Positions 10,908 to 32,238 of a stretch of DNA of 64,000 nt are shown here, piece after piece (position 1 is the stretch's first letter; every line of letters starts with the position of its first letter). The stretch spans positions 64,001 to 128,000 of IMG/VR virus record IMGVR_UViG_2597489997_000001. The stretch is one strand, 5' to 3'. The translations under genes were made by a program, and so were the position numbers. The stretch is from a virus (taxonomy: Duplodnaviria > Caudoviricetes). Under the pieces are notes generated by a model. It saw nothing but the letters and a program-made list of their open reading frames with translations, had not been told where the DNA came from and ran no database searches.

Positions 10908-12527
10908 ATGTCAGAAGTTAATAACGACACACCTCAGACAGAAATGCAGCAGGAAGTAAATAAAGAGAAGTGCATTAAGATTCTCCGTGCTACACTGCTG
11001 GGAACTGCTGATGATCTTCAACCTTCCCTTCCTCTGTTCATTGGTACTCTGAAAGAAGAACATGCGATTATCTATCGTGCTGCAACTTCTTATCTGGGTA
11101 TGGTAGATGCTCAGAAGAAAGGTAATGAACGCGCAGTAAATATCTTCAAGTCCCAGTTCGAAGAAATTCGTGCAGAACACTTCCCTGGTTCTGAAGATGC
11201 CGTTCTGTTCCCAATGTTGACCAACTACTTCCACTTCTTCTTCAATGGACTGGACCGTACTCTGGTTCGCGATGAAACCATTGATCTGGCTCAGACCGCT
11301 GATGTCGGTAACACTTTCCCAGGCAAAGCTGGACCGATGGCACTGGTTAACCCTTTGACTCCATCTGTTAATGCCACGATGGGTGTCCGTGAACGTATGC
11401 GTCGTAACTTCCTGCGTGCTTATGATCGCCCTGACTCTTTCAACCTGGTTCTGGAAAACTCCCTCATCTTTATGAAGGTTAAAGTTCCTGAGCCATTGGA
11501 ACTGGTTCGTCTGATTAATGACATCGTCATTAAGCTTCGCCAGTACGGTGAAAAGTATCAGGTGTCTTCTCTCCACCTGGAACGTGCCGGTATTGGTAAG
11601 ATCCTGGTTAACTTCATTCTGGACCGTCTGTCATACCACAGTGTTAAAGGTATTGACGATCCGTATGAACTGAAGTCAATTATTCTGGCTAACGACCTTA
11701 ACCAGATTGCACAGACTCTGTTATGTATCACTCAGCCTAAGGGTGTTGCATTCCGCATGTACTGCCTGGCTAACAAGTGTAACTACTCAGAGAACGTTAT
11801 CATTGATCCTACATCAATGTTACTGGAACTGGGTAACACTATGCCTGAGAAGCGCTGGGAGCTCTTACAGGACGTTGTTAACAATGGTCGTAAGTTATCC
11901 CGTGAAGAGATCGCTGCTAACCCTCCTGTCTATCTGGACAAAGAAGGTAAGGAAATCAAACCAGGGGTTGACCTGAAAGACGGTACTGGTCGCTTGCTGA
12001 TTGGTGTTCCTACCATGGGTGAGTACTTCGCTGCGTTTGATGCAATGGCAGAACGTCTGAACCCTGAACTGCGTCAGTTGGCAGTAGACTTCCCTAATCA
12101 GAAGATCTACTCTGAAAAACGTAAAGAAGTGGTTGCTGCGTTACGTGGCGGCGAGTACCTGCAATGGTTCCGCGCTTACGAAATCTTCCCTCCTGTTGGT
12201 GAAGAAGGTGATAACGAAATCATTACTCGTGAAGAAGATCCTAAAGAGTTCGATGAAGGTCTGATGGATATCTTCAACAAGGATGACGATCTTTACTACG
12301 ATGCCATTCAGCAGATCATTACTTACGCACCTCGTATGACATATACCTTCGTTGGTATTAAAGACGACGTGTGCCCTAACTGTAAGAAGAAAGCAGAAGG
12401 TGTTGACCGTGAAGCTACCCCAGGCTTTACTCCAGTTGACCCAGTACTGAATTTTTTCGACCATACCCGAATGATGATCAACGTCCAGACGTTCAACGGA
12501 ACTTTACAAGAGGACAGTCTTTCTTAA
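10908..12527 (+). CDS. Putative tail/baseplate assembly chaperone with Zn-ribbon Cys pairs; short product of a possible frameshift locus
   Basis: 539 aa, AGGA RBS; Cys pairs YCLANKC and CPNC; the NFF near the C-terminus is encoded by a slippery T6C run. The function is inferred. Confidence 0.5.
   Translation: MSEVNNDTPQTEMQQEVNKEKCIKILRATLLGTADDLQPSLPLFIGTLKEEHAIIYRAATSYLGMVDAQKKGNERAVNIFKSQFEEIRAEHFPGSEDAVLFPMLTNYFHFFFNGLDRTLVRDETIDLAQTADVGNTFPGKAGPMALVNPLTPSVNATMGVRERMRRNFLRAYDRPDSFNLVLENSLIFMKVKVPEPLELVRLINDIVIKLRQYGEKYQVSSLHLERAGIGKILVNFILDRLSYHSVKGIDDPYELKSIILANDLNQIAQTLLCITQPKGVAFRMYCLANKCNYSENVIIDPTSMLLELGNTMPEKRWELLQDVVNNGRKLSREEIAANPPVYLDKEGKEIKPGVDLKDGTGRLLIGVPTMGEYFAAFDAMAERLNPELRQLAVDFPNQKIYSEKRKEVVAALRGGEYLQWFRAYEIFPPVGEEGDNEIITREEDPKEFDEGLMDIFNKDDDLYYDAIQQIITYAPRMTYTFVGIKDDVCPNCKKKAEGVDREATPGFTPVDPVLNFFDHTRMMINVQTFNGTLQEDSLS
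12452..12458 (+). other. Candidate -1 programmed ribosomal frameshift heptamer T TTT TTC
   Basis: Correct X XXY YYZ phase in the 10908 ORF. The -1 frame has a stop at 12437-12439 and is then open from 12440 to 12979. Confidence 0.6.
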
Positions 12528-12568
12528 ATACTGAGAAAGATTTAAACCCTCAATCGGTTAATAAGGCG

Positions 12569-12979
12569 ATGGAATTACTCATCGCCTCAGCCAATGAAGT
12601 TGATCCATTGAAGTTAGCCATAACCGATCATCGGATGTTTGCTTTGCGTCATGGGTACATCTCTGATAAGGAACCTTTTGTTAACCACATTAAGTTCAAT
12701 ACTCAGTTACGGGATTGTTATCATCCGTGGTCGGCTAGCTCTGTCGGACACACATACGGGATACGGGAATACGAAAAGGTTATATCTCTGAAGGACTACA
12801 TGACTATGCCGGTAGACCTTACTGAGGATCTTTTGGAAGCCGTTGTTCGTGGTCAAGCTGACTTAGCTAAGCTTAAGAAAGAAGCTGCGGACAAAGCTGC
12901 ACGTGCAGCAGGTGGATCTACCGACCCTGGTAAGTCTGCCATAACTAATGCATTAAGAGAGGACAAGCGTCATGGGTAA
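12569..12979 (+). CDS. Hypothetical protein; probably the C-terminal part of a frameshift fusion with 10908
   Basis: In the -1 frame relative to 10908 and open for 43 codons upstream of its ATG; SD is weak and too close (TAAGG-CG-ATG); YMTMP motif. Confidence 0.65.
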   Translation: MELLIASANEVDPLKLAITDHRMFALRHGYISDKEPFVNHIKFNTQLRDCYHPWSASSVGHTYGIREYEKVISLKDYMTMPVDLTEDLLEAVVRGQADLAKLKKEAADKAARAAGGSTDPGKSAITNALREDKRHG

Positions 12980-13621: not shown

Positions 13622-14089
13622 GTGGCTGATATTACTGATGATTTCTTCTCTGTTACTGAAGACTCTTTCAAAGAGTTACTGAAAGATAAAGTAGCTGGTA
13701 TTGATGAGCGTAAACTTGTTCATTTGATCAAGGGTATTCGCAAACAGTCTTACTTCGGTGAGAGCATGTTCAAAGATCCTGCATTCGGCCAGGGCGAGCG
13801 CTGTAAGGTTGTTTACCAAGCCGTCCCTAACCCACTGACTGCTGAACAGTTCCATGAGCAATCTAACATCAAGGTTCCTTATACTGATCTGTTGGACGCC
13901 TTTGTCATTCCGCTGTGGGTTCCTAATCAGTGTAATGCGGTACAAGCTCGTCTGGCTATCTGCACCCCGCGATATGGGGACCATGTCATCGCTGTACAGG
14001 TCCGTTATGGCTTCAAACAAAATGTGTGGGCAACCATTTACTGTGATACCCAAACAGTAAAAATCGCCATCCGTTCAATCCTCCGTTAA
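13622..14089 (+). CDS. Hypothetical protein, paralog of 14101..14568
   Basis: TAAGGA RBS, GTG start; shared SF(K/R)ELL, NP(L/F) and LDA(F/L)VIP blocks. Confidence 0.75.
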   Translation: MADITDDFFSVTEDSFKELLKDKVAGIDERKLVHLIKGIRKQSYFGESMFKDPAFGQGERCKVVYQAVPNPLTAEQFHEQSNIKVPYTDLLDAFVIPLWVPNQCNAVQARLAICTPRYGDHVIAVQVRYGFKQNVWATIYCDTQTVKIAIRSILR

Positions 14090-14100
14090 TAGGTATCCCC

Positions 14101-14568
14101 ATGGCTAAAGAAATTACCGAAGAACAATTCAATCATGACATCCCTCCATCTATTCTGGAGAAGTCTTTCCGTGAGTTGTTGAACGAAACGTTCATTAAGG
14201 ATAAGCGAGCTTATTTGATTCACGAAGTTCGTAACATGTCCCATCACTCTGGTTTTGAGAACATTTTCAACTACGAATACATCGATCACTACGAACGTGT
14301 GGTTGTTGAAAAAGATGCTATTGTCAATCCGTTCTTTGATGATAGTCCTGATCGCCCTGAGAAGCTCGATGCGCTGGTTATTCCGTTCATGGATGGGTAT
14401 GGTTCAGTTTGCCATATCAAGCTGTGTATCTCCATTAGCGAGTACGAATATCCTACCTATGAACTTCGTTTCCAGGTTCGTGGGGTTCGCCGCAATATCC
14501 ATCTTCCGGTAACGCCGAAGAACGCTCTGCCCACCATTAAGAAACTTCAGTACCCTGGTAAGTTCTAA
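14101..14568 (+). CDS. Hypothetical protein, paralog of 13622..14089
   Basis: AGGT RBS; aligns by eye with the upstream gene. Confidence 0.75.
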   Translation: MAKEITEEQFNHDIPPSILEKSFRELLNETFIKDKRAYLIHEVRNMSHHSGFENIFNYEYIDHYERVVVEKDAIVNPFFDDSPDRPEKLDALVIPFMDGYGSVCHIKLCISISEYEYPTYELRFQVRGVRRNIHLPVTPKNALPTIKKLQYPGKF

Positions 14569-31026: not shown

Positions 31027-32238
31027 ATGTCTTTCAAAGATCTGTTCTCCGGTATCTCTGGTACCGAATCCATGGATATTATTCCAGATACTCAACCTGT
31101 GGTAGTTGAACAAGTTGTGTACAGCCCTGAAGAAGCTGCGCTGATTGTTAATGATCGCGATGTAGCTATTAACGACACTGTCGTCACCCAACTGACCAAC
31201 GTTGTGGATAATACTGCAACGGCTATGGAAGTTCTGACTGATAAAGTTGAAGAACTCCAAACTAGCATCGAAGGTATGGAATCAATGCGTTCCGGTAAAG
31301 TTGAGTTTAACGCGGGTCTGTTCGCTCATCACTATAACAAGGCAGCTAAGATCAGTGCTCAGTTTGGTGCTAAACCACAACATCTGGGTGCTGAGTCTTT
31401 CACTTCCAAGGATGAGCTGGGTCAAGAGCTTCTTGACGGTTGTGAAGCCTTTAAAGATATCGCTAAGAAAGCTGGCGGTAAAGTTAAAGAGATGTTCATT
31501 GCTCTCTATAACGGGTTCCTGGACCTCTTCGATAAATACATCGCTGGGTATAAGAACCTGGGTCAACGTGCCACCACTCTGCTTAGTCAAGTTACTAAAG
31601 ACGCTAAGGATATGGTTGCTGCTGATAAAGTTAAACTCCCAGCTGCATGTGCGTTCGTTGATGATAAAGGTCAAGCGTCCGATATCCCTCAACAGGTTAT
31701 TGCATTGGCTAATGGTCTGAAATCCATTGGCTCTACCGCACATCCTGATGACGTCATGAAAGCAGTTGATTTCGCGACTAAAGGTATTCTGGATCTCGGT
31801 AAGAAATCTCAGATGGGTACCGATGAAACCACCGATACCTATAAAGTAGAATTCAACGACGTTCACTTCACTCTGGTTGTTCCTCGTGAAGTTAAAGGTC
31901 TGGATCAGTTGGCTCTGAAAGATATCGGTACCGATAGCAAAGCTCGTGAAGTAAGTGGAATGGCTCCTAACCAGTTGATCAGCCTGCTGAAAGAAATTGA
32001 AAGCTACTGTAAGAAACTGGAAGCGGTTGATCTTTCCCGTAAAGGTCTGACTACTATCCGTGATAACGCGATCGCACGTACCAATGCTGGCTTTGAAGCC
32101 AAGAACGTTCAGAACCTGCACGCTGGTATGCTGAAGCTGTGCAAAGGTGTATCTGAACTGTCTGGTCGTTCTATCAAAGGTCAGTTGGCTTTCGTACAAG
32201 CTCAGATCTCTCAGTCTACTAAGAAAAAAGAAGACTAA
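31027..32238 (+). CDS. Internal head protein paralog 3
   Basis: Starts MSFKDLF; EGMESM, FNAGLFAHHYNKA, LGAESF, DGCEAF; ends KKED like paralog 1. Confidence 0.7.
   Translation: MSFKDLFSGISGTESMDIIPDTQPVVVEQVVYSPEEAALIVNDRDVAINDTVVTQLTNVVDNTATAMEVLTDKVEELQTSIEGMESMRSGKVEFNAGLFAHHYNKAAKISAQFGAKPQHLGAESFTSKDELGQELLDGCEAFKDIAKKAGGKVKEMFIALYNGFLDLFDKYIAGYKNLGQRATTLLSQVTKDAKDMVAADKVKLPAACAFVDDKGQASDIPQQVIALANGLKSIGSTAHPDDVMKAVDFATKGILDLGKKSQMGTDETTDTYKVEFNDVHFTLVVPREVKGLDQLALKDIGTDSKAREVSGMAPNQLISLLKEIESYCKKLEAVDLSRKGLTTIRDNAIARTNAGFEAKNVQNLHAGMLKLCKGVSELSGRSIKGQLAFVQAQISQSTKKKED

Follow-up and report, generated by a model that had tools for sequence, protein, structure and literature searches.

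A conserved T run in the phiKZ gp077 gene family as a candidate -1 recoding site of nucleus-forming jumbo phages

Are two adjacent "hypothetical" genes of a jumbo phage really two genes, or can the first be read on into the second? This question is raised by a 64,000-nucleotide (nt) stretch of a tailed-phage genome (Caudoviricetes; IMG/VR record IMGVR_UViG_2597489997_000001, positions 64,001 to 128,000), which was analysed as a whole and is called the window below. In it, an open reading frame (ORF) of 539 amino acids (aa; 10908..12527) is followed by a second ORF (12569..12979), and a first-pass annotation had proposed that a hidden -1 programmed ribosomal frameshift joins the two into a tail chaperone system of the G/GT type. 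Judged by sequence comparison, the arrangement at this locus is far beyond chance, and its conservation in all 32 loci compared speaks strongly for a programmed -1 shift by which the first ORF is joined to the second. The explanation that we find best as a whole, two-way decoding of the 10908-12527 gene plus a role like that of the T4 proteins gp51 and gp26, has in our estimate a probability of about 0.7.

The proposed shift site and its conservation

All features of the locus lie on the plus strand. Near the 3' end of the 539-aa ORF the 0 frame reads CTG AAT TTT TTC GAC, with AAT as codon 515 (12450-12452), which puts a slippery heptamer, T TTT TTC (12452..12458; N515 F516 F517), in phase with the ORF that begins at 10908. 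This is the proposed -1 shift site. The 0 frame ends at the stop 12525-12527. The -1 frame is closed just 5' of the heptamer by a TGA (12437..12439), which marks the upstream limit of the stretch where a shift into that frame can happen. From the heptamer it is open for 175 codons up to the stop at 12977-12979; it is the frame of the downstream ORF, and it crosses the 41 nt that separate this ORF from the 0-frame stop. Heptamer, TGA, open frame and coordinates are all as the first-pass annotation had described them from sequence and ORF list. Its remark on rare codons after the heptamer holds as well: CGA, GGA and TTA occur in the 0 frame past the heptamer, and upstream CGA serves 0 of 29 Arg, GGA 3 of 31 Gly and TTA 5 of 52 Leu codons. 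So does its remark on the poorly spaced Shine-Dalgarno (SD) sequence of the downstream ORF, as the ATG at 12569 is preceded only by AAGG, two bases upstream.

In the decoding that we propose, most ribosomes would read the 0 frame and stop at 12525-12527, giving the 539-aa protein, the last 27 residues of which form a C-terminal helix. A fraction would slip back by one base with two phenylalanine transfer RNAs (tRNA-Phe) on UUU UUC of U UUU UUC (12452-12458) and would then read on in the -1 frame, across the "intergenic" stretch and up to the end of the downstream ORF at 12979. The predicted products of such a tandem slip are thus proteins of 539 aa and of 517 + 173 = 690 aa, and the slip would fix the ratio of the short to the long isoform. 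Residues 1-517 would be shared, and in the long form the terminal helix would give way to a Pro-rich linker and a conserved domain of ~130 aa. In the dual-coding overlap (12458..12527), the 0 frame encodes the final 22 residues of the short isoform, which belong to the helix 512-538, and the -1 frame encodes RPYPNDD...RGQSFL of the long one. The predicted 690-aa form (about 77 kDa) carries the junction peptide ...LNFFRPYPNDDQR, and the predicted junction tryptic peptide of the window long form ends in ...VLNFFRPYPNDDQR.

By sequence comparison, the 539-aa ORF falls into the phiKZ gp077 family (EL gp47, PhiPA3 gp074), which extends across the chimalliviruses. The 539-aa protein matches phrog_4585 (E 1.5e-135, residues 1-536) and the downstream ORF matches phrog_19747 (E 5.7e-51), both being PHROGs of unannotated function; sequence searches of Pfam, NCBIfam and PDB gave no match for either protein. 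Using tblastn, the window protein finds 68 phage records and reaches EL and RisingSun, a search via EL ORF047 finds 69 records and reaches PhiPA3 gp074, and a search via PhiPA3 gp074 finds 246 records, including phiKZ-like phages, SPN3US, Ea35-70 and jumbo phages of Ralstonia and Serratia. The gene is hence one that the nucleus-forming jumbo phages have in common. The PhiPA3 record itself describes gp074 as similar to phiKZ gp077, 201phi2-1 gp136 and EL gp47, and literature matches to "gp77" and "gp136" concern other proteins. With EL, RisingSun, PhiPA3, Churi and SPN3US as its relatives, the phage is phiKZ-like, as had been supposed from the window alone.

The comparison took in 32 distinct loci, of which 27 come from GenBank phages, 4 from IMG/VR contigs (L021-L024) and one from the window. 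The GenBank phages are 18 that were found with the window protein (L001-L018), PhiPA3 (L025), and eight very distant phages (L027-L034: Churi, LucasX, SPN3US, Ea35-70, RsoM3USA, Moabite, KpLz-2_45 and Yong MS32). The counts leave out vB_PQ1 (L019), in which the gene is fragmented, and L020 duplicates pEt-SU, which is counted once. Identity of the big protein among the compared loci goes down to about 21-25%, and 28 of the loci form 9 clusters at 35% identity.

A T run occupies the same Phe-Phe position near the 3' end in all 32 loci (T6 in 21, T7 in 8 and T8 in 3), and T TTT TTN is in phase in 31 of them. The downstream ORF always sits in the -1 frame (32/32), and no stop interrupts that frame between the T run and the end of the downstream ORF in any of the 32 loci, over spans of 156-182 codons. 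Across the same span, in a 24-locus subset, the other two frames are interrupted, the 0 frame by 4-15 stops and the +1 frame by 12-24. A conservative estimate, which takes only the stretch up to the annotated start and the least favourable member of each of the 9 clusters, gives the open -1 frame a chance of 1e-5, and the -1 frame relation alone has a chance of (1/3)^9 = 5e-5. The first-pass annotation had named the alignment of orthologous loci as a check, and this alignment returns the T run, the -1 relation and the stop-free -1 frame in every case. We consider programmed recoding of some kind at the T run very probable on this evidence. The putative recoding site is present in every lineage examined and the locus is annotated everywhere as two separate genes; we found no earlier description of this recoding in the literature covered, which did not extend to supplements and subscription journals.

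The choice of codons at the site is equally constant. All 24 loci counted spell the first Phe as TTT, although TTT makes up only 9-70% of the Phe codons in these genes. The codon before it carries a third-position T in 23 of 24 loci and specifies a varying residue (N, T, S, A or G); in one more relative this codon is TGT, for Cys (inferred from P0048). In Kc263 the second Phe is replaced by Leu, encoded by TTA, and the heptamer is thereby kept. Mean pairwise differences in an ungapped alignment of 10 loci amount to 0.34/0.22/0.61 by codon position upstream of the site and to 0.25-0.33 at all three positions in the overlap. Counted by -1-frame codon position, they are 0.59/0.43/0.65 in the linker (12528..12568) and 0.48/0.33/0.69 beyond it, with the periodicity back in the -1 phase. 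The linker is "intergenic" in the 0 frame, yet in the -1 frame it is open and weakly periodic by these differences, and its residues align in relatives. The position pattern is that expected of dual coding.

The 0-frame tail is itself conserved, as it is matched up to position 549 of 551 of the phrog_4585 profile, and the stop that ends it follows the T run after 73-82 nt in 23 of 24 loci. Short and long products alike seem to be of importance. Just before this stop (window 12508-12527), GAGGA and TCTTTCYTAR show little or no variation among all 16 loci aligned, the window and 15 relatives. The GAGGA block resembles an SD sequence, and no start codon follows at the right distance. The conservation of both blocks may reflect dual coding, as EExLS-stop in one frame and RGxSFL in the other. 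A second slip site at the TCTTTCYTAA stop context is ruled out, since no re-pairing of tRNA into the -1 frame is possible there.

Homopolymer runs of T are error-prone on some sequencing platforms, and a sequencing error might in principle have split one in-frame gene at this point. We regard the chance of such an artefact as practically negligible, for all 32 genomes, which were sequenced independently and include Sanger-era EL, show the identical split, the 0-frame tail and stop are conserved as described, and the fused form is in no database. In all 38 clusters the big protein measures 527-555 aa, a length-directed search found no longer proteins carrying the extension, and a profile of the extension, compared with 1.84 billion representatives, gave 53 matches, 52 of which are 53-172 aa long. 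The single match of 703 aa, considered as a fusion, is an unrelated repeat protein. In the vB_PQ1 record an EL-like gene is split into several small coding sequences, which suggests many assembly indel errors in that record.

Separate initiation is another alternative. If these were two ordinary genes, each with its own start, the open -1 frame and the T run would be by-products of an FF dipeptide and of tight packing. Two genes are annotated in every database record, several loci have a possible start 21-35 codons past the site, and starts are possible soon past the 0-frame stop at codon 29 in Vibrio phage 2 TSL-2019 and pTD1 and at codon 35 in AH04. The window itself has an ATG at codon 40 past the site (12569), with the weak AAGG already mentioned. 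These starts count against a purely recoded downstream ORF, and together they indicate that separate initiation may coexist with recoding; in the window, a 136-aa product may be separately initiated from ATG 12569. However, this start codon is not conserved in relatives. No ATG occurs in the first 40 codons past the site in 25 of 32 loci, and none of ATG, GTG and TTG in 19 of 32, and the residues 5' of the first possible start align among relatives. Churi has its first ATG/GTG/TTG 88 codons past the site, in an open -1 frame of 171 codons of which only 46 aa are annotated as an ORF, and the annotated start of Ea35-70 is neither ATG, GTG nor TTG. Two independent genes would not account for a downstream ORF that is in the -1 frame at all 32 loci, for a -1 frame free of stops, for the constant codon choice at the site, for the low rate of third-position change in the overlap or for residues that align 5' of the starts. 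We therefore take the two-gene explanation to be very unlikely.

Several records at these loci are unusual in their annotation. Downstream starts are annotated deep inside the conserved region in L002, L003, L005, L006, L009 and Churi (L027, 3426-3757), and the Ea35-70 start noted above is placed at 2889 (L030). The Churi record also holds an adjoining 47-aa ORF on the other strand that is labelled "baseplate hub protein".

Across the whole 284,757-bp genome, the 402 mechanical ORFs of at least 100 aa contain only three in-phase XXXYYYZ sites after which the -1 frame stays open for 60 codons or more beyond the stop, the T TTT TTC described above being one of them. A T TTA AAG in ORF 31247-31720 with a long -1 frame is not a recoding candidate, as this ORF is the shadow of a real gene, 31027-32238, within which it lies. 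Outside the window, at 230424-230960 of the genome, a 178-aa ORF has T TTA AAA 10 nt ahead of its stop, and 300 further codons of -1 frame follow. This could be an ordinary gene overlap or a further recoding site, for example that of a true tail chaperone.

Slippage by the ribosome or by the polymerase

The same two proteins would result if the phage RNA polymerase (RNAP) added one U at the T run in some messenger RNAs. Chimalliviruses transcribe with their own unusual multisubunit RNA polymerases, and several features of the site would suit transcriptional slippage. All 32 loci carry a pure homopolymer, which reaches T7 or T8 in 11 of them. PhiPA3 has an imperfect heptamer, G TTT TTT, in which T6 is kept. 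In addition, no ribosomal stimulator is conserved. The alignment shows no conserved RNA structure downstream (consensus -3.3 kcal/mol, 0 compensatory pairs), and no SD-like element was seen by eye 5' of the site in a 10-locus alignment. The small AACGT/ACGTT stem to which the first-pass annotation had pointed is indeed present past the window site; relatives do not keep it, and shuffled versions of the region fold as well as the original (z -0.31), so that no stimulator emerges there either. A scan for promoters and terminators gave fewer sites than in shuffles. These observations on the PhiPA3 heptamer, the long runs and the lack of a stimulator are the points that weigh against a ribosomal shift. 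The shift rate may accordingly be low, or it may be set by something invisible in the sequence.

Other features of the site speak against a slipping polymerase. Six Ts are short for polymerase slippage in known bacterial cases, and 21 of the 32 runs are no longer than that. In 31 of the 32 loci, the T by which the run reaches upstream is precisely the last base of the codon before the Phe pair; tandem slippage demands a T there, whereas polymerase slippage would be served equally well by an extension on either side. The base past the run is mostly C, not T. A search of sequencing runs for the sequence listed no RNA run, and one DNA run that shares a small part of its short words. We consider transcriptional slippage unlikely. 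Tandem slippage of two tRNA-Phe is the simplest reading, as it fits the conservation of phase, and a -1 ribosomal shift specifically is in our view probable, with less certainty than attaches to recoding as such. That it is the ribosome which slips, rather than the RNA polymerase, we infer, as we do slip frequency and protein roles; the sequences themselves show the site with its frames, how both are conserved, and the signature of dual coding.

Structure and possible role of the products

The model of the 539-aa protein is of fair quality by its predicted local distance difference test score (pLDDT, 79) and predicted template modelling score (pTM, 0.79), and it includes the C-terminal helix of residues 512-538, which begins at the slip site. 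An ESM Atlas model of the extension is poor (pLDDT 0.41) and its matches are not credible. Four cysteines are invariant in 38 relatives: C286 and C291, in C286-x4-C291 (CLANKC, 11763..11780), and C489 and C492, in C489-P-N-C492 (CPNCKK, 12372..12383). They are likely, from their invariance, to form the two halves of a metal site. The Zn-ribbon that had been read from the window sequence is plausible to the extent that it denotes such a four-cysteine site, but the C-terminal CxxC is missing from the tails of three distant relatives, RsoM3USA, Moabite and KpLz-2_45.

Comparison of predicted folds suggests a counterpart of the T4 hub-assembly chaperones gp51 and gp26, acting in baseplate or tail-hub assembly, and we see the odds for this role as even. 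In such a role the extension would provide the long form with an extra binding surface. A Foldseek search against BFVD places jumbo-phage homologues first among the 50 matches listed. At ranks 18, 25, 26, 28, 29, 30, 35, 45 and 49 it returns entries named baseplate hub assembly protein, subunit or chaperone, and at ranks 19 and 50 entries named only "baseplate protein". The eleven baseplate-named rows have E values from 1.7e-4 to 0.17 and template modelling (TM) scores by target of 0.31-0.56. An independent structure search in the ESM Atlas names PF12322, with a TM score of 0.64 by the length of that cluster's protein, and T4 gp26 and gp51 both belong to PF12322. These fold comparisons set predicted models against predicted models, the PF12322 family having no solved structure. 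A review (Leiman et al. 2010, PMC3004832) gives gp26 and gp51 of T4 as hub assembly chaperones, of which gp51 is essential and absent from the particle. The comparison with gp26 and gp51 that the first-pass annotation had put forward is thus favourable as far as predicted folds go.

Several observations stand against this role. The PF12322 hidden Markov model (HMM; cut-off 24.5 bits) matches neither the window protein nor 38 relatives nor 16 distant homologues, and none of these reaches even E <=1 with it. A six-frame search of the genome with PF12322 was also without a match, a weak negative, since the control genomes gave none either. Using hhalign with 10 sequences on the T4 side, only a 13-column CPxCKK segment is aligned, at a probability of 40% in local and 9.6% in global mode; profile comparison aligns no stretch other than CPNCKK with T4 gp51. 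Solved structures in PDB yield nothing usable (best Foldseek E 0.27), and the best PDB match of VIA-align (Z 7.0) covers one helical hairpin only. The gene sits among transcription and replication genes. Finally, the Churi homologue gp256 (= phiKZ gp077) appears among early-expressed proteins in PMC11849849.

The recoding could hence be real and the protein still be no baseplate factor, acting instead early in infection, in the phage nucleus, in transcription or in replication, with a likeness to gp51/gp26 that is convergent or too weak to carry the assignment. Helicase, virion-RNAP beta subunit and DNA polymerase genes as neighbours, the early listing of Churi gp256, the lack of an HMM or profile link to PF12322 and a protein twice the size of gp51 all speak in its favour. 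On the other hand, eleven independent BFVD entries are named for the baseplate, nine of them for hub assembly, with TM scores by target of up to 0.56, a second method, the ESM Atlas, gives the same family, and nothing else comes from PDB or any family library. We rate an early role somewhat below an even chance and keep hub assembly as the preferred role.

Synteny around the gene is well kept. First come the genes for the virion-RNAP beta subunit and for a gp079-like virion protein on the other strand, then a 250-aa gene, the 539-aa gene and the -1 ORF; gp078-, gp079- and gp080-like genes retain their order, and helicase and DNA polymerase genes lie near the locus. Members of the family are annotated as two unrelated hypothetical proteins, and now and then as "ZipA-like" or "baseplate protein". 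Farther downstream in the window, two adjacent ORFs of equal length (155 aa; 13622-14089 and 14101-14568) are without a PHROG match and may be paralogues.

Meaning of the locus and comparison with known systems

The phiKZ-like nucleus-forming phages are much studied, and most of their shared genes are without known function. If the proposed recoding is real, its presence in every lineage examined makes public annotation of the locus systematically wrong: a 690-aa protein is missing, and downstream ORFs are truncated or given arbitrary starts. Recoding would also provide a functional handle on two "hypothetical" genes together. Beside the G/GT rule, it would be a second, unrelated case in which -1 frameshifting of tailed phages sets the ratio of assembly factors, and a site that has no recognisable stimulator is of interest for the mechanism of frameshifting itself. 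A bolder proposal, which we think quite unlikely, is that a stimulator-less T-run switch operates in this core gene throughout Chimalliviridae, by which one gene supplies the chaperone pair that T4 encodes as 26 and 51. Host ribosomes are remodelled by these phages, which also bring RNA polymerases of their own; on this proposal a phage factor may therefore set the slip rate, and with it the ratio of short to long form, and the ratio may change while infection proceeds. If true, this would be a trans-regulated frameshift in a bacterial virus.

Among known systems, the dnaX gene of E. coli (tau/gamma) undergoes a -1 shift on A AAA AAG with the help of an upstream SD-like element and a downstream hairpin, and the shift truncates the protein. 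The window locus shares with it a homopolymeric heptamer and the prediction of two isoforms with a common N-terminus; it differs in that the shift would add 173 residues and in that no stimulator was found.

The T4 proteins gp51 and gp26 resemble the window protein in predicted core fold and in the CPxCKK motif, and T4 likewise has several related products, the paralogues 26 and 51 and an internal 26' in the T4 record. In contrast, the window protein is twice as large, and profile comparison is negative beyond the motif. The T4 variants come from separate genes and an internal start, not from frameshifting, and genes 26 and 51 lie inside the baseplate cluster. By its modelled fold, the window protein is at most a distant structural relative of gp51/gp26.

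The closest parallel in decoding is found in lambda G/GT and P2 E/E+E', the -1 frameshift tail assembly chaperones of long-tailed phages, which are roughly 100-280 aa in size; P2 slips on a T run. As is proposed for the window locus, the -1 slip takes place near the 3' end of an upstream ORF and gives short and long forms with a common N-terminus, presumably in a fixed ratio, and the arrangement is conserved group-wide and overlooked by gene callers. However, the window proteins of 539 and 690 aa are about four times larger than these chaperones, and their genes lie between those for a virion-RNAP subunit and a DNA polymerase, not beside tube and tape-measure genes. No relatives of tail assembly chaperones were found in Pfam, PHROG or NCBIfam, or among the 50 BFVD matches listed. 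Size, position and the lack of a match in these libraries and rows argue against membership of the lambda G/GT or P2 E/E' family, though a distant relation may exist. "G/GT-type", the term of the first-pass annotation, is wrong as a family label and close as an analogy for the decoding.

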